Below are positions 25,256 to 33,242 of a stretch of 64,000 nt of DNA, piece by piece. The position numbers and the translations under genes were made by a program. This stretch comes from a phage. The stretch lies in the sequence record PZ452578.1; one strand, written 5' to 3'. Every line of letters starts with the position of its first letter. Position 1 is the first letter of the stretch. The notes beneath the pieces were generated by a model. It was not told the origin of the DNA, made no database searches, and was given only the letters and a program-made list of their open reading frames with translations.

Positions 25256-25545
25256 TCAGTCTCCAATTTAATGTTCATAATTCTAGCGTATGATTGTGCC
25301 ATCTCCGCGCCTCGCTCTATACATTCAAAATCAGAAGAGCACGGGTCATTTTTATAGGTCGTTCTCATAAAACTATAGAATTGTTCAGACGATTCTACGC
25401 TTTTATTTTCAAAAAGCATATAAACGTGCCTAATACCAGATTCCATAAATTTATCAAAATGAGGATCGACATTCGCTTCAATCGATGGAGATAAAACAAA
25501 TGACAATCCTAGCATGGCAAAAAGTGCCGTTGCTTTTAAGGCCAT
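25252..25545 (-). CDS. rI: Lysis inhibition regulator rI (periplasmic antiholin)
   Basis: 97 aa; signal-anchor MALKATALFAMLGLSFVLSPSIEA; strong SD AGGAGG. Confidence 0.8.
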   Translation of the reverse strand: MALKATALFAMLGLSFVLSPSIEANVDPHFDKFMESGIRHVYMLFENKSVESSEQFYSFMRTTYKNDPCSSDFECIERGAEMAQSYARIMNIKLETE

Positions 25546-25557
25546 AAAGGCCTCCTA

Positions 25558-25770
25558 TCATTTTTGTCCTGTATTTACTTTATGCCGATGCACGGCCTTA
25601 ACTTTATCAAGGTATTTTTCAAAATTTCGCAATCTAGTATAGTCTGCCGGAGATTGGTTGAGTGATACTTCTCGACGCAAAGCTGAAATGATATTTCCAA
25701 CTTCCCTACGAATTTCATCTAATTAAAGCACAGTAAGATTGCGAAGTTGCTTTTCAGTTAATTGTAGCAT
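25558..25770 (-). pseudogene. Small late ORF interrupted by in-frame TAA (15 codons, TAA, 54 codons)
   Basis: ATG 25768-25770 with SD and TATAAATA upstream; MLQLTEKQLRNLTVL, stop at 25723-25725, then [54 protein letters not shown] in the same frame. Confidence 0.4.
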
Positions 25771-25795
25771 ATATACCCCTTTAGTTAGATAAACC

Positions 25796-25803
25796 TATTT
25801 ATA
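25796..25803 (-). promoter_or_regulatory. T4 late promoter box TATAAATA
   Basis: plus tatttata; 25 nt upstream of ATG 25770. Confidence 0.45.
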
Positions 25804-25812
25804 ACTTTTGCA

Positions 25813-26394
25813 CTAACCGAGCTTTTTAGTTAATTCATTCCAATGTTTTCTACACAAAGAAACATAAATTTCATCACCAATACAGATTTGATTACCTTCT
25901 TTAACTGGTGTTCCATCTTCCATTAATCGAGCTGTCATAATCGCTTTTTTACCACAGTGACAAACTGCTTTTAGTTCAATAAGTTTATCTGCAATCGCCA
26001 AAAGTTCTTTAGAACCTTCAAATAATTTTCCAGCGAAATCAGTCCTTAATCCATAAGCCATAACAGGAACATTATATGTATCAACAATTCGACTTAATTG
26101 ATGCACCTGTTCAGTTTTTAAAAATTGGGCTTCATCTACAAATACGCAATGAATATCTTTTTGTGCTTCAGCCCATTTATAGAACTCGAAAATATCCATA
26201 TCATCTGTGATAATATTCGCTTCCTGTTTAATTCCAATGCGAGAAACGACTTCACAGACAGAGTCGCGAGTATCAATAGCAGGCTTAAGAATTAATACAC
26301 TCATTCCACGTTCTTTATAATTATGTGCAGCAGTCAAAAGAGAAGCAGATTTTCCAGCATTCATTGCTGCATAAGTAAAAATTAAACTCGCCAT
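25813..26394 (-). CDS. tk: Thymidine kinase
   Basis: 193 aa; P-loop AMNAGKS; C-terminal Zn finger CHCGK...CRKH. Confidence 0.9.
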   Translation of the reverse strand: MASLIFTYAAMNAGKSASLLTAAHNYKERGMSVLILKPAIDTRDSVCEVVSRIGIKQEANIITDDMDIFEFYKWAEAQKDIHCVFVDEAQFLKTEQVHQLSRIVDTYNVPVMAYGLRTDFAGKLFEGSKELLAIADKLIELKAVCHCGKKAIMTARLMEDGTPVKEGNQICIGDEIYVSLCRKHWNELTKKLG

Positions 26395-26395
26395 C

Positions 26396-26584
26396 TTAGT
26401 CCTTAGTTAAATTTTCTAAATATGTTTCTAAATCATTTTCAGCTTTATCGATAGATTTTACTAATTCGTAATATGTTTCGGCATCTCCATAATCAGAAGA
26501 TAATTCAAAAGACAAATCCTTTTCTAAACTAATAATTTCACCAACTAAAAATAATATTTCGTTCTTTTGTTCGCGAGTAATCAT
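26396..26584 (-). CDS. Small acidic protein (62 aa)
   Basis: MITREQKNEILFL...; paralog of 26581-26766. Confidence 0.4.
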   Translation of the reverse strand: MITREQKNEILFLVGEIISLEKDLSFELSSDYGDAETYYELVKSIDKAENDLETYLENLTKD

Positions 26585-26766
26585 AAAGAATTTATATAAT
26601 CAATGAGTTCTTGTTCTTTATTATCGAATTCTTTAGAAAGTTCTTCGTATTCATTTGCATTAAAAGGACCGCATTCATCACAAACTTTTTCCAATTCACT
26701 GTTTTTATCCATAACTTCGTGGATAAGAGAAAAGAGTTTGTCTTTTTGTTCTTTGCTTAAACTCAT
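26581..26766 (-). CDS. Small acidic protein (61 aa)
   Basis: MSLSKEQKDKLFSL...; ATGA overlap with neighbours. Confidence 0.4.
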   Translation of the reverse strand: MSLSKEQKDKLFSLIHEVMDKNSELEKVCDECGPFNANEYEELSKEFDNKEQELIDYINSL

Positions 26767-26936
26767 ATATTAATTTCCAAAAGTTTTAAAATAATTCGCT
26801 TTTGCTTAAATATTTCCACAGTTAAATGATCAGTATCTTTTTGACCAATTCCAATGGCAAAACCTTTATTAACAGCGAGTTCAATTAAATTATCAAGTTC
26901 ACGTAACACTTCATATTGTAACTCAGAACTATTCAT
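26763..26936 (-). CDS. Small protein (57 aa)
   Basis: ATG 26934-26936 (rc) overlapping upstream TGA; MNSSELQYEVLRELDNLIEL... Confidence 0.3.
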   Translation of the reverse strand: MNSSELQYEVLRELDNLIELAVNKGFAIGIGQKDTDHLTVEIFKQKRIILKLLEINI

Positions 26937-27145
26937 TTCGGTTTACCTTCTTTAACGAAATCTGGATAAGGATAAAATCCCGAATAAAATCCTTCACCTT
27001 TATGATTGATGCATCCTTTATTAGAACAATAGCACCAATAATCGAAATCACAAGCCATTTCATCGTTGCATAAAGCAAAAACAACCGGCCATTTACACTT
27101 TTCACAGTGGGCATTTTTAAGAATACTAGTTTGGCTCATAACCAT
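26933..27145 (-). CDS. Cys-rich small protein (70 aa)
   Basis: CEKCKW...CDFDYWCYCSNKGCINH. Confidence 0.4.
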   Translation of the reverse strand: MVMSQTSILKNAHCEKCKWPVVFALCNDEMACDFDYWCYCSNKGCINHKGEGFYSGFYPYPDFVKEGKPK

Positions 27146-27363
27146 GTCACCTTTAAGCAGTATTCTTCTACATGCTGTTTACGACCTTTCTTATCAATAA
27201 AGGTATATTCAACGAATGTTCCAATGTAGTCTTTATCTACATCATGTGGACTATTAATTGGACATTTAGTACGGCAAATGCGTTCCCATTGACGAATAAT
27301 TACTGCCTTATTCTTTGGGTCATACGGATGTGGATAATGTATATTCATAATAACGGTTCCCAA
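27136..27363 (-). CDS. Hypothetical protein (75 aa)
   Basis: ORF track. Confidence 0.4.
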   Translation of the reverse strand: MGTVIMNIHYPHPYDPKNKAVIIRQWERICRTKCPINSPHDVDKDYIGTFVEYTFIDKKGRKQHVEEYCLKVTWL

Positions 27364-27812
27364 TCAACAATCACAATTTCTAATTTAGAGGAATATGTAT
27401 CTAAAATCCCCTCAATAATATCCCAGTTCCCTTTACCTATGCCTGCACCAATCCTAGGCATATAGATTGTAGGTTTAATCAGTTTATTTTCACCAAACTC
27501 ATTTAATTCTAACATACAATTCATTAAAGCGGAATACTCAAAATTTGGCCCTGGTTGAAATTGAGTATAAAGGTTGAAGCAATACGCTTTATGAGTCCTA
27601 AAGTATTTTTCATAGACTGAATAAGAACCAAGTTTAGTTACATCACCCCATTCAGTCTGTAATTTATCAGCTTCCAAAATTTTAGGGAAAGCTTTAGTTA
27701 ATTGACCTGCGACTCCAGCTTTCATCGTGTGAAAACAATTACATCCATGCGCAATATTTTTACCTTCAGCGAAAAGGGCGACAATATCGCCCTTGATATA
27801 TTTTACAATCAT
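27345..27812 (-). CDS. Macro-domain-like protein (putative ADP-ribose binding/processing)
   Basis: 155 aa; NIAHGCN...AGVAGQL and MPRIGAGIGKGNW resemble macro-domain glycine-rich loops. Confidence 0.4.
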   Translation of the reverse strand: MIVKYIKGDIVALFAEGKNIAHGCNCFHTMKAGVAGQLTKAFPKILEADKLQTEWGDVTKLGSYSVYEKYFRTHKAYCFNLYTQFQPGPNFEYSALMNCMLELNEFGENKLIKPTIYMPRIGAGIGKGNWDIIEGILDTYSSKLEIVIVDWEPLL

Positions 27813-28156
27813 CTAGTACTCAATCCTCGATTATAAGAATCTACCAAACGGTCAACCATTGAATGACAAGCGGCTTTATCTTTCTCCTCCGCAACTGAAC
27901 ATTCTAAAGTATTCCACTTTTTAGCATATCGTTTTAATAATGTATCATTTTTGTATCTACTTGATTTATCTCTTTCTCCGTCTTTATATGCATATATTAA
28001 TTTCTGTGCAAATTCAGCTTGACATGCTTTATTTTTCCCACAATAATCTGCCGCAGTGCGGTTTACATATTCTCTAATTTCAGTATATGATGTATCTGCT
28101 GACGCAGAAGCAGAAAATGAAATTAATCCTATACATAAAACCAAAATTTTAGTCAT
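27809..28156 (-). CDS. Secreted/periplasmic small protein (115 aa)
   Basis: Signal peptide MTKILVLCIGLISFSASASA. Confidence 0.45.
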   Translation of the reverse strand: MTKILVLCIGLISFSASASADTSYTEIREYVNRTAADYCGKNKACQAEFAQKLIYAYKDGERDKSSRYKNDTLLKRYAKKWNTLECSVAEEKDKAACHSMVDRLVDSYNRGLSTR

Positions 28157-28694
28157 TTACTATTTCCAAAAGTTTATTATTTTTAAGGTAATTAGCCTTT
28201 TCTAGGACTTCAGAAGCATATTTAGAACCTGCTTTAACATTCCATCCCGAATTATAAGAGGATATTGCTTTTCTTATATCGCCCTTATGTATATTTAACC
28301 AATAAGAAAGTTCAATGTACGCCCAGGAAGCTGAATTGGATCGTTTATTCAACATTCTTTTTATTTCAGCATCGGTCATATTATAACCAAGTTCCTTAAC
28401 TCTTGCTCGCATAGTAGGCAAATAATTTTGGAACATTCCGTAGGCGTGATGCTTTGGTTTAGATTTTAAATTAACTCCGCCAGAGCTTTCTTGCCATAAA
28501 ATAGCAGCCATTATATGACCTAATCCGCTCTTGTGGATATTTTTATGTGTTTTATATTTTCCATCCTTAGAAAACTGTTCCCCGAATTGATACGCGTAAC
28601 GCATGTTATCGAGTTGGACATTACTGAAAGTATGCTCGGAGCTATGTGCCATCATTGAAATGGCCAATAGACCAGCGAGTAGTGCTTTTCTCAT
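28149..28694 (-). CDS. Lytic transglycosylase-like protein with signal peptide
   Basis: 181 aa; signal peptide; SLT-type motifs WQESSGG and YGMFQ. Confidence 0.6.
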   Translation of the reverse strand: MRKALLAGLLAISMMAHSSEHTFSNVQLDNMRYAYQFGEQFSKDGKYKTHKNIHKSGLGHIMAAILWQESSGGVNLKSKPKHHAYGMFQNYLPTMRARVKELGYNMTDAEIKRMLNKRSNSASWAYIELSYWLNIHKGDIRKAISSYNSGWNVKAGSKYASEVLEKANYLKNNKLLEIVND

Positions 28695-28701
28695 GCTTAC
28701 C

Positions 28702-29163
28702 TCATTGAGTTTTAATTACTGCTTTAGAAGCCTTTCCTGGTAAACGACGACTATTGATAATTGCCATCCTGCACTGAAGTGACGGGTCTTTGAACTTCGC
28801 ATTAGGTTTACAAACTGTAAATCCAAGCCAAAGATTTCCATCTGTGATTTCTAGACGCCCAGGACGATATTCAACCCCATCAATAAAATCCTCGTCAATG
28901 TCAGGACGCGGAGGCATACTCAGGAATTCATTAACTTCTAAAACATGGTCTTTTATTTTATGGAATAATTCAAAAACGTATGTCTCATCAATCTCCCGTT
29001 GAATTGCGCGATCAAGAAGATGTTGAGAATATTTTAGATGAAACGATGAGACCCCTGCTGCTTTTGATGCCTCACGAATCTCATTGTTAATTTGACGAAA
29101 CTCCGACTCAAAGTGACGACGAAGCTTATTTCGACGGATAAAAACTTCTGTATTGATAGTCAT
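28702..29163 (-). CDS. regB: Endoribonuclease RegB
   Basis: 153 aa MTINTEVFIRRNKLRRHFESEF...; matches T4 RegB as I recall it; own early promoter. Confidence 0.8.
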   Translation of the reverse strand: MTINTEVFIRRNKLRRHFESEFRQINNEIREASKAAGVSSFHLKYSQHLLDRAIQREIDETYVFELFHKIKDHVLEVNEFLSMPPRPDIDEDFIDGVEYRPGRLEITDGNLWLGFTVCKPNAKFKDPSLQCRMAIINSRRLPGKASKAVIKTQ

Positions 29164-29190
29164 GTTATTCTCCTCTTAACTGATAGAAAA

Positions 29191-29220
29191 ATTATACCAC
29201 AGTCAAGAGGAAAAGTAAAC
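29191..29220 (-). promoter_or_regulatory. T4-type early promoter (regB)
   Basis: minus strand GTTTAC-18nt-TATAAT with TGTGG. Confidence 0.55.
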
Positions 29221-29222
29221 AG

Positions 29223-29543
29223 TTATTCTTTAAATCTAATCAATTTATTCATAGACTTTGAAACTTCTGCACGAACCTCATGTAGATTTTTGAGCTGCTC
29301 AAGACGCTGCGCATAGTAAGCAATTTCATCTTCTTCGAGACAGTCCTGTGAATCTTCTTTAAGATAACGTGCATAGTCCTGAAAAGCGTTACGAACTACT
29401 TCCTGGAAATCATCAAGACTTTGAATTTTCTTAGGAGCAGCAGATACACGACGAGGGGCAGTATAATACTCATAACCAAACCCTGCGCTTAATTGAGCCA
29501 TTAGTATTTTTCCTCTGGTTGGAACACTGCACGACAAGCCCAC
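29223..29543 (-). CDS. Hypothetical protein (106 aa)
   Basis: ORF track. Confidence 0.4.
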
Positions 29544-29803
29544 ATACTGGCTTCTTTGAGTTTCGTTTTAGCAATAGTTAACTGATCGAGGCTTTCAGCA
29601 TAATTCTTCGCGAGTTCATCATCTTCACAGCTATCAAATGCTTCCCAAAATTCATCGTATAAAGCATCAAAGATAAGTCCTAAACGAACTTCAGCGTCTT
29701 TAATAGCATTTACTTTACCGATTTTTTCGTCGGTATGTGGCTTATAACCTTTAATATCTTCAATCATATTTGACTTCCTCACCAGTGCATAAATCATATT
29801 CAA
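29501..29803 (-). CDS. Hypothetical protein (100 aa)
   Basis: ORF track. Confidence 0.4.
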
Positions 29804-29981
29804 CTAAACGAATAGGTTCATGAATGCCATATCCTTGAACAGAAATTTCTGTCGTAGGATAAATTCCATCAATATCACCCATATTCCAGGCTTCATTAAA
29901 TTGCTGTTCGCCTGAATTACTAAACCACTCGGCGAAAGCATTTAGCACATCTTTAGAACCTTCAATAATTATCTTTGCCAT
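29760..29981 (-). CDS. Hypothetical protein (73 aa)
   Basis: ORF track. Confidence 0.4.
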   Translation of the reverse strand: MAKIIIEGSKDVLNAFAEWFSNSGEQQFNEAWNMGDIDGIYPTTEISVQGYGIHEPIRLVEYDLCTGEEVKYD

Positions 29982-30343
29982 TACAAACTCTCAGTAAAGG
30001 TACGAGCGATAACGTCGCGCTGCTGTTCCGGAGTCAGAGAGTTAAAGCGAACTGCATAACCAGATACACGGATGGTCAGCTGCGGATATTTTTCCGGATG
30101 CTTAACTGCATCTTCCAGAGTTTCACGACGCAGAACGTTAACGTTCAGGTGTTGACCACCTTCAATTTTAATTGTAGGCTGTGGCTCAATTTCAATTTCA
30201 CGGGCATGCAAACCATAGAAAATTTCTGGGTCTACAAAAGAGTCCTCTTTAAAGGTTTTAGAAACGATAATTCGTGCTTGAATACCATCTTCAAAATAAA
30301 TAGTGCCTTTGTGTGTGCCTTCAAGAATTTGATATGCTTTCAT
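29981..30343 (-). CDS. Autonomous glycyl radical cofactor (GrcA/YfiD-like)
   Basis: 120 aa; C-terminus [59 protein letters not shown] with glycyl radical motif RVSGYAV; 3' half of gene is GC-rich. Confidence 0.75.
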
Positions 30344-30350
30344 ATAAACC

Positions 30351-30679
30351 TCAATTAGAAAATAAATTTATCCAAGATTGTTCTTTAATTAAAAACGGCT
30401 CAGAATCATATGCCATTAAACTTTGGGTGATTAGTCCTTTAAAAGGCCCATCAATAAATTCCATGGTAAAATATGGAATTTTATTCATTAGCCGTGCATT
30501 AGGAGCCGTGCACAAAACTCTGCATCCTTTGAATACGCCTTTTTGTAATTTGTATTGCTTGGGATAAAATTCGCTCAAAATGTTATTATTTGCTAAAATT
30601 TCAAAATGATTCACCAATTTATTTTTAATAGTTTTTGGCGAAAAATAAAGATATTCGAAAAGCTGAGTGTCTGTCATCA
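30351..30679 (-). CDS. Hypothetical protein (109 aa from MMTDTQ)
   Basis: ATGATG start overlapping upstream TGA. Confidence 0.4.
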
Positions 30680-31216
30680 TTGCATTCCGATTACGAAAAA
30701 CTGTGGACGAGTAATACCACCAATACAACATTTAATATTACAGCAGCAGTGTACAGTGTCAATATGGACACTATAAATCTTATCCATATCAGGAGATTTG
30801 ACAGGCTCATCAATTATATATAAAATTCGCGAAAGCGATAAACCTCTGAACTTGCTTCCTTTATTACCAATAAAACTGCGCACAGAATCAGTAAATAAAC
30901 GAAAACGTATATCATCATTAGAATAACGCGAAAATTCCTTTTTAATGTTATTTGCAGAAATTTTAGCGTAAGCTGAAGTATTAGAAAGAACAATAACTGT
31001 TCCGCCATCATACAGCCAATTAGCAGCAAAGTTAGTCACAGCAATTGATTTACCGGATTGACGTCCACCATCTAGTCGAAGTGTGCAATACTGTTTAAGT
31101 AAGTCTTCAAATGGCGGGATATATTCGTTTTTACAAATTTCTTCTACTCTAGCATCAGAATGGTGTGTAAAAGCATTCATCAGGGATAGATAAGGACCAG
31201 TTAAAAATGTTCTCAT
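30677..31216 (-). CDS. P-loop ATPase resembling the N-terminal ATPase core of terminase large subunits, Cys-rich C-terminus
   Basis: 179 aa; Walker A DGGRQSGKS, Walker B ILYIIDEP; C-terminal HCCCNIKCC. Confidence 0.5.
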   Translation of the reverse strand: MRTFLTGPYLSLMNAFTHHSDARVEEICKNEYIPPFEDLLKQYCTLRLDGGRQSGKSIAVTNFAANWLYDGGTVIVLSNTSAYAKISANNIKKEFSRYSNDDIRFRLFTDSVRSFIGNKGSKFRGLSLSRILYIIDEPVKSPDMDKIYSVHIDTVHCCCNIKCCIGGITRPQFFVIGMQ

Positions 31217-31356
31217 TTCTTCTCTCTAAATTTGGGCCATTCCGTGGCGCATGAATTGTCCATTTCTGTATTTACCCATTACCGCGCTTGGGCTCGACCT
31301 TATTACAGGTTGGCGGGAATCCCTCACAAAATCATGAGGTCCAGGTTGTTCCCATG

Positions 31357-31830
31357 TTATTTGAATGATTTAACGTACTGAATAGAACCTTTACTATTCA
31401 CAAAGGCAATTTTACCATTTTTGTTATACATGGTAGCAGTACGTTGATAGCCATAAGTTTGTTTACCAGATTGATAACCAACTAATGCGAAATTATCTTC
31501 ACCCATTTTATTCTGTTTAGCGCGAATACGTTCATGGCCATGTGCCATAAGAACCTTAGCATCACCAGTTGCAATGGATCTACGAGTTTTTTCATCTTCA
31601 ACTGTATTAACAAAGTCGTCAAATGAATCAAATTTAGCATGAGATTTATTATACAGTTTTCCATCTACTGCATAATTATATCCTTGTACATCCATCTCAA
31701 CTTCTGTACCATCATCCAGTACAGCAGTGATTTTCTGTCCTTTTTTAAATTTCAAAAGATCAGTAAAAGATTCAGCAATAATTTGAGAATTAATAGCTGC
31801 TTCAGTAATAAATTCTTGATAGGTTTTCAT
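31357..31830 (-). CDS. Internal protein (IPII/IPIII family) with capsid-targeting N-terminus
   Basis: 157 aa; MKTYQEFITEA leader with protease-site-like ITE/A. Confidence 0.7.
   Translation of the reverse strand: MKTYQEFITEAAINSQIIAESFTDLLKFKKGQKITAVLDDGTEVEMDVQGYNYAVDGKLYNKSHAKFDSFDDFVNTVEDEKTRRSIATGDAKVLMAHGHERIRAKQNKMGEDNFALVGYQSGKQTYGYQRTATMYNKNGKIAFVNSKGSIQYVKSFK

Positions 31831-32254: not shown

Positions 32255-33223
<969 letters not shown>

Positions 33224-33242
<19 letters not shown>

Follow-up and report, generated by a model that had tools for sequence, protein, structure and literature searches.

DarTG systems halt phages by ADP-ribosylating phage DNA. When a T4 transposon library was grown on a DarTG2 host (HIDEN-SEQ preprint; bioRxiv, November 2025, 10.1101/2025.11.20.689424), tk.4 was the single significant, conditionally essential gene. 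A clean tk.4 knockout was DarTG2 sensitive, and the authors called the gene adfM (“anti-DarT factor Macrodomain”). The preprint proposes, but does not demonstrate, that the protein takes ADP-ribose off DNA enzymatically, and the literature that we searched yielded no biochemical test of Tk.4 with ADP-ribosylated DNA as the substrate; the evidence from T4 is genetic and comes from a preprint. Two other anti-DarT factors of T-even phages, AdfN (T4 gp30.3, a NADAR protein) and AdfA (gp61.2, the factor found in RB69), have folds unrelated to that of Tk.4, and their genes lie outside the DNA analyzed here. AdfN is an orphan antitoxin-like DNA ADP-ribosylglycohydrolase, as Tk.4 would be, and NADAR domains also occur fused to macro domains of the Tk.4 type; however, AdfN is specific for guanine-linked ADP-ribose (DarTG1) and does not counter DarTG2. 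Because T4 lacking both adfA and adfN stays DarTG2 resistant, another factor was to be expected, and tk.4/adfM fills this gap. T-even phages thus carry layered erasers and inhibitors, comprising AdfA, AdfN for guanine marks, and AdfM/Tk.4, probably for thymidine marks.

SCO6735 of Streptomyces coelicolor and BT1257 of Bacteroides thetaiotaomicron, whose hosts are cellular organisms and not phages, are free-standing ALC1-like macro domains with about 25 to 29% identity to Tk.4. According to the SCO6735 paper, this enzyme efficiently cleaves thymidine-linked ADP-ribose on DNA and protects against DarT. Its Gln85 is structurally equivalent to the lysine of DarG and TARG1, both Q85A and Q85E are inactive, and Asn27 positions Gln85, with N27S being nearly dead. 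The authors propose a water-mediated, lysine-independent mechanism. SCO6735 also strips uracil-linked ADP-ribose from RNA. In DarG (T. aquaticus and M. tuberculosis; DarTG2), a catalytic lysine (K80) stands where Tk.4 has Gln, and the macro domain is accompanied by a C-terminal DarT-binding domain and an adjacent darT gene. Tk.4 has neither of the latter two, its neighbors being vs and tk.3 (DUF7202).

A stand-alone phage macro domain that counters DarTG2 is also found in PhiKZ. The protein, gp104, likewise called AdfM, is a chimallivirus DarG2-like antitoxin that removes ADP-ribose from DarT2-modified DNA in vitro and is imported into the phage nucleus (Cell Rep 2026). Its sequence, translated from the one given in that paper, has the DarG-type FPTK lysine and matches M. 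tuberculosis DarG at 9e-25, whereas BLASTP aligns it with Tk.4 at an E value of 0.018 over 23 residues only; given this alignment and its DarG type, it was not accepted as a Tk.4 family member. PhiKZ gp104 and T4 Tk.4 are separate lineages of one fold class. The name AdfM covers two barely alignable proteins, a Gln-type one (T4 Tk.4) and a Lys-type one (PhiKZ gp104), which could mislead annotation transfer. Human TARG1/OARD1 and yeast Poa1p have the MPRIG(C/A)G loop and the overall length in common with Tk.4. They differ from it at the catalytic positions, as the Lys84/Asp125 dyad of TARG1 is replaced by Gln84 and Gly126 in Tk.4, and Poa1p, an ADP-ribose-1''-phosphatase, has Ser at the position of Q84. 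AdfB of phage ICP1 was also considered as a relative and was set aside, since the literature presents it as an antitoxin mimic that binds DarT and does not credit it with the hydrolase activity of a macro domain.

Identity and distribution of tk.4

The window, that is, the whole stretch of 64,000 nucleotides of phage DNA analyzed here (record PZ452578.1), contains a minus-strand ORF of 155 amino acids with an ATG start (Table 1), which a preliminary description had singled out as macro-domain-like and which is present as described. It is gene tk.4 (adfM) of a T6/SH7-like Tequatrovirus. Orthology to T4 tk.4 is evident both from the sequence (153 of 155 residues, or 98.7%, are identical, the sole differences being G31K and S32A) and from the shared order of vs, tk.4, and tk.3 with the same ATGA-coupled packing. 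A megablast search with positions 26900 to 28300 retrieved 663 phage records, with Shigella phage SH7 (99.1%) and T6 (98.7%) as the best matches, while tblastn located Tk.4 in 2,734 phage records. A family profile run against 1.84 billion proteins gave about 18,000 hits in all; clustered at 50% identity, 1,202 representatives matched at an E value of ≤1e-30. Of the 18 nucleotides that differ between the window gene and T4, 13 are synonymous; together with this, the tblastn records and the profile matches place tk.4 far beyond a chance ORF, and it is a real, conserved gene under purifying selection. With a family of about 1,200 clusters, a biochemical answer for Tk.4 would apply to thousands of phage genomes.

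Among the megablast relatives, the gene is recorded as tk.4, “macro domain protein,” “phosphatase,” “Poa1p-like family protein,” “high-affinity ADP-ribose binding module protein,” or “hypothetical protein”; the phosphatase label arises because Poa1p acts on ADP-ribose-1''-phosphate. The reading as a macro domain is correct yet already known, since many records annotate the domain and the T4 ortholog has been genetically characterized as AdfM. Recognizing tk.4 for what it is puts right the widespread labels “phosphatase” and “hypothetical protein” and is relevant to host range predictions for therapeutic T4-like phages. What remains of interest is the cleavage chemistry of Tk.4, its Gln-type site apart from those of DarG and PhiKZ AdfM, and the common K31 allele.

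Bacterial members adjacent to darT were also sought. The two inspected homologs assigned to bacterial metagenome-assembled genomes (P0070 and P0098) sit on T4-like phage contigs that carry Rnl1, PNKP, dCMP deaminase, and T4 spanin genes, and no bacterial context was found for them. The close Tk.4 family thus appears to be phage borne, given that the inspected “bacterial” homologs lie on phage contigs. As a side observation, the contigs L003 (in GCA_051648945.1) and L004 (in GCA_051660865.1) are binned as Bacilli and Culicoidibacterales genomes yet are phage contigs with T4-like genes (Rnl1, a Dda-like helicase, PNKP, dCMP deaminase, T4 spanin, and Y01A); on L003, Rnl1 and a DUF4326 gene precede the macro gene, which is found two genes downstream of them.

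The preliminary description had placed the ORF in a tk-regB accessory block, and tk, vs, vs.1, and regB were all found around it. The order is tk, a gene for a phage zinc-binding protein, tk.3, tk.4, vs, vs.1, and regB, and the succession vs.1, vs, tk.4, tk.3, and tk recurs in AR1 and T4. Tight packing of the ATGA type is usual in T4 early regions. A scan of positions 25500 to 31500 for sigma-70-like promoters gave 26 sites against 24.7 expected from shuffles, which amounts to no signal, and revealed no promoter-like site directly upstream of tk.4; a search with the MotA-box pattern found no minus-strand site near the gene. The regB-vs-tk.4 block has a candidate early promoter in a consensus match upstream of regB (Table 1). 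On the basis of gene packing and general knowledge of T4, we infer that tk.4 is cotranscribed early with regB, vs.1, and vs.

Table 1. Coordinates of tk.4, of its sequence elements, and of neighboring features in the window
Feature	Position	Strand	Remarks
tk.4 (adfM) coding sequence	27345..27812, stop included	-	Stand-alone ALC1-like macro domain
ATGA overlap, vs stop/tk.4 start	27809..27812	-	Putative translational coupling; sequence reading
ATGA overlap, tk.4 stop/tk.3 (DUF7202) start	27345..27348	-	Sequence reading
Loop 1/substrate-binding loop, H22-G36 (HGCNCFHTMKAGVAG)	27705..27749	-	N25 and G33 invariant; K31 and A32 allele specific
Mosaic patch versus T4, 22 nt (gene nt 84-105, codons 28-35)	27708..27729	-	11 of the 18 nucleotide differences
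N80-L-Y-T-Q84 motif, end of central strand	27561..27575	-	Q84 at catalytic-Lys position
Loop 2/diphosphate-binding loop, P119-W130 (PRIGAGIGKGNW)	27423..27458	-	P119, I121, G122, and G124 invariant
tk (thymidine kinase)	25813..26394		Neighbor of tk.4
vs	27809..28156	-	Upstream of tk.4, in tightly packed minus-strand block 27809..29163
vs.1 (SLT domain)	28149..28694	-	Upstream, same tightly packed block
regB	28702..29163	-	Upstream, same tightly packed block
Sigma-70-like site, TTTACT-17-TATAAT with extended TG	29191..29219	-	Upstream of regB; consensus match only

Fold, active site, and loop 1 of Tk.4

Two glycine-rich segments of the translation, NIAHGCN...AGVAGQL (residues 19 to 25 and 32 to 38) and MPRIGAGIGKGNW (118 to 130), had been likened to the ADP-ribose-binding loops of macro domains, with a Pfam scan and a structure prediction named as ways to check the likeness. 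The segments are present, and they align with macro loop 1 and with the diphosphate-binding loop 2 of TARG1, BT1257, and SCO6735. The Pfam Macro profile (PF01661) matches Tk.4 at 25.0 bits, above the gathering cutoff of 22 (E = 1.9e-5; profile positions 2 to 113 of 118), and PHROG 335 matches at 1e-64. An AlphaFold2 model built from a 53-sequence family alignment is a three-layer alpha/beta/alpha macro fold (pLDDT, 95; pTM, 0.90) with alternating strands and helices as expected. Both ADP-ribose-binding loops are kept, loop 1 with its Asn and G-x-G and loop 2 as P-x-I-G-x-G. The best Foldseek matches of the model were TARG1, Poa1p, BT1257, and DarG, and a phmmer search of the PDB with Tk.4 returned the macro domains of BT1257, Poa1p, TARG1, SCO6735, and DarG. 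The 53-sequence family profile matched BT1257 (3.5e-19), SCO6735 (1.3e-15), TARG1 (1.8e-15), Poa1p (7.7e-14), and DarG (2e-13 to 7.5e-12). Judged by these closest sequence and structural neighbors, Tk.4 is a macro domain of the ALC1-like class (TARG1/DarG/SCO6735/BT1257/Poa1p).

Against the NCBIfam DarG profile (NF048014), Tk.4 scores 25.1 bits, compared with a cutoff of 250, and covers only the N-terminal macro part (positions 2 to 146 of 338); likewise, only positions 2 to 145 of 329 are matched in the PADLOC DarG profile. With a score of 25 versus 250 bits and without the C-terminal domain, the catalytic lysine, or a neighboring darT gene, Tk.4 would work like the macro domain of DarG but is not a DarG.

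The difference lies in the active site. Q84 of Tk.4 occupies the position of the catalytic lysine of TARG1 (K84), DarG (K80), and PhiKZ gp104, which is Gln in SCO6735 (Gln85) and BT1257. HMMER profile alignments place NlYTQ, NMIGQ, and YLITK in the same register, the Tk.4 motif being N-x-Y-T-Q against N-M-I-G-Q in SCO6735 and BT1257. The glutamine is invariant in all 260 homologs compared (120 of 120 in the alignment with the references and 140 of 140 further representatives). N25, which aligns with N27 of SCO6735, the corresponding Asn of DarG, and N23 of PhiKZ gp104, is kept in 119 of 120 and 140 of 140 homologs in the same two alignments. Overall, the 260 homologs show little or no variation at N25, N80, Y82, Q84, G122, and G124, and all six are present in each of the 140 additional representatives. 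Loop 2 aligns with MPRIGCGL of TARG1, BT1257, and SCO6735. Tk.4 differs from SCO6735 and BT1257 by an alignment gap in place of their longer “mobile loop” with Lys89. Whereas a Lys-type thymidine-ADP-ribose hydrolase carries its catalytic lysine where the central strand ends, Tk.4 has Gln84 there; a Gln-type ALC1-like enzyme has Gln at the Lys position together with a positioning Asn, and Tk.4 has Q84 and N25. Thus, the active site is of the SCO6735/BT1257 Gln type and not of the DarG type. To the published T4 genetics, the present analysis adds this Gln active site of the Tk.4 family, its separation from the PhiKZ AdfM lineage, and the domain fusions and the mosaic patch described below.

Some family members longer than 200 amino acids are fusions: Macro-NADAR-DUF4326 (P0254, 472 amino acids), DUF4326-Macro (P0246, 302 amino acids), and Macro-NUDIX (P0184, 247 amino acids). 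AdfN and DarG1, which take guanine-linked ADP-ribose off DNA, have the NADAR fold, and both DarT chemistries would be within reach of a macro-NADAR fusion.

The window allele carries its two substitutions relative to T4, both in loop 1, on a 22-nt mosaic patch (Table 1), which yields G31K, S32A, and five synonymous changes. Phage AR1 has the identical 22-nt patch, whose pattern suggests a short tract of recombination and not point mutation. Position 31 is where all reference macro domains have the first Gly of their M-G-x-G motif; Gly is also found there in 103 of 120 family members, but the window allele has Lys. Distant members show Ala, Ser, Lys, Arg, Asn, Asp, and Glu at position 31, and Lys or Arg recurs independently in three of them (P0048, P0098, and P0116). 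Since these residues are tolerated elsewhere in the family, the idea that G31K is inactivating finds no support. In SCO6735, BT1257, and DarG, a G-K-G motif places a Lys one position after K31 of Tk.4, and K34 of SCO6735 is among the residues analyzed by mutagenesis in the SCO6735 paper. A role of K31 in nucleic acid binding is possible. Going further, it is conceivable, though less likely than not, that T-even AdfM represents an independent recruitment of the lysine-less, Gln-dependent (SCO6735/BT1257-like) lineage, distinct from the DarG-derived, Lys-bearing AdfM of PhiKZ. Such an enzyme would use a water-mediated mechanism and have a wider range of base-linked substrates (thymidine-ADP-ribose in DNA and uracil-ADP-ribose in RNA), and the recurrent Lys or Arg in loop 1 and the mosaic patch (K31 in T6, SH7, AR1, and the window) would reflect arms-race tuning to nucleic acid binding or to DarT variants.

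Probable role against DarT2 and other readings

We infer that Tk.4 is probably a free-standing ADP-ribosyl glycohydrolase, made early, that removes the thymidine ADP-ribose placed by DarT2 from single-stranded DNA by means of Gln84 and Asn25. In this scheme, DarT2 of the DarTG2 defense puts ADP-ribose on thymidine bases of single-stranded phage DNA, and Tk.4, probably produced early from within the regB-vs-tk.4-tk block, would take it off again, so that phage replication could go on. The invariant Asn25 would hold the invariant Gln84 at the position that DarG and TARG1 fill with their catalytic lysine. By analogy with the proposal for SCO6735, catalysis is most likely lysine independent and would proceed by substrate positioning and an activated water. 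Several points count against this scheme, among them the genetic nature and preprint source of the T4 evidence and the survey discussed below. The window allele differs from that of T4 precisely in substrate loop 1, and the DarTG2 phenotype is that of the T4 allele only. In addition, the likeness of Tk.4 to the ADP-ribose-1''-phosphatase Poa1p, in both sequence and fold, is about as strong as that to DarG.

The DarTG2 phenotype could also be produced by a protein that mainly binds and blocks DarT2, through stoichiometric inhibition or antitoxin mimicry, in place of hydrolyzing ADP-ribosylated DNA. There is precedent for this idea, as the dead Q85A variant of SCO6735 still inhibits DarT in vitro, more so than DarG K80A or TARG1 K84A, and AdfB of ICP1 works by direct interaction with DarT. 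The conservation of N25, Q84, G122, and G124 in more than 250 diverse homologs is, however, the pattern of an enzyme and not of a binder of one toxin. Moreover, the 155 residues of Tk.4 do not include the DarT-binding C-terminal domain of DarG, and the fusions with NADAR and NUDIX domains point to ADP-ribose chemistry. We therefore regard protection mainly by binding as unlikely. The same fusions have been read differently by Iyer, Aravind, and colleagues, whose comparative-genomics survey takes them as signs of processing of soluble ADP-ribose derivatives and holds that phage macro domains mainly target those. Accordingly, Tk.4 might chiefly act on ADP-ribose-1''-phosphate, as Poa1p does, on O-acetyl-ADP-ribose, or on cyclic or variant ADP-ribose immune signals, and the DarTG2 phenotype would be secondary or one of several roles. 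We consider this decidedly improbable. DarTG2 sensitivity is the sole phenotype reported for the T4 gene, and the closest sequence relatives for which a substrate has been established, SCO6735 and the Gln-bearing BT1257 group, attack ADP-ribose that is linked to bases of DNA and RNA. As to the Poa1p active-site residues H23 and S30 (taken from PDB mutant entries), H23 has a conserved equivalent in Tk.4, H22, but the equivalent of S30, T29, varies in the family (Thr in 75, Leu in 10, Ala in 10, and Val in 9 of 120 members), and the Poa1p residue that corresponds to Q84 is Ser instead of Gln.

T-even phages themselves encode the ADP-ribosyltransferases Alt, ModA, and ModB, and Alt and Mod modify arginine. 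The preliminary description had suggested that a macro-type enzyme could reverse or read ADP-ribose marks, left either by the phage's own transferases or by host defenses. For the host defense, the suggestion is supported by the DarTG2 sensitivity of the T4 knockout reported in the preprint. That Tk.4 erases or reads the marks of Alt, ModA, and ModB on host proteins or RNA is, by contrast, hardly credible, even though SCO6735 keeps some activity on protein-linked ADP-ribose: a genetic link was not found in the literature searched, and the DarTG2 phenotype does not need such a role. ALC1-like macro domains, moreover, are not known to cleave the arginine linkage made by Alt and Mod.

A role of Tk.4 against CmdTAC, which ADP-ribosylates mRNA, was considered and rejected: wild-type T4 meets a strong defense from CmdTAC even though it has tk.4, so that Tk.4 evidently does not neutralize this system. 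T5 is strongly restricted by DarTG2, and a search of its 711 stop-to-stop ORFs with the family profile found no macro domain of the Tk.4 type (the best score was 11.7 bits, against 201.6 for the window gene); T5.105, annotated as “Sir2” and considered as a hidden macro domain, did not match the profile either. Being a correlation in a single phage, this is a small consistency check.

Other features of the window

Several observations were made in passing. At positions 27774..27794 on the plus strand, antisense to the 5' end of tk.4, there is a terminator-like hairpin with an 8-bp GC-rich stem and a T-rich run behind it (AAGGGCGACAATATCGCCCTT GATATATTTT). The palindrome would fold in the tk.4 mRNA as well, at codons 7 to 13, and it may be due to chance, as 6 such sites occur in the region versus 3.4 expected. 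The N termini of Vs and Vs.1 look, by eye only, like Sec signals (MTKILVLCIGLISFSASASA/D... and MRKALLAGLLAISMMAHS/SE..., respectively); Vs has no Pfam match, and one would hardly expect a secretion signal in a protein bearing the annotation “valyl-tRNA synthetase modifier.” A vs.6 homolog at 29981..30343 on the minus strand encodes a glycyl-radical (GrcA-like) domain (Pfam Gly_radical, 3e-18) and would thus be a spare glycyl-radical module within the same accessory block as tk.4. About 5 kb from tk.4, beside the lysozyme gene (32255..32749), lies a NUDIX-domain gene (nudE-like; 32787..33242, minus strand). One may speculate that ADP-ribose freed by the Tk.4 macro domain could be cleared by a Nudix ADP-ribose pyrophosphatase.
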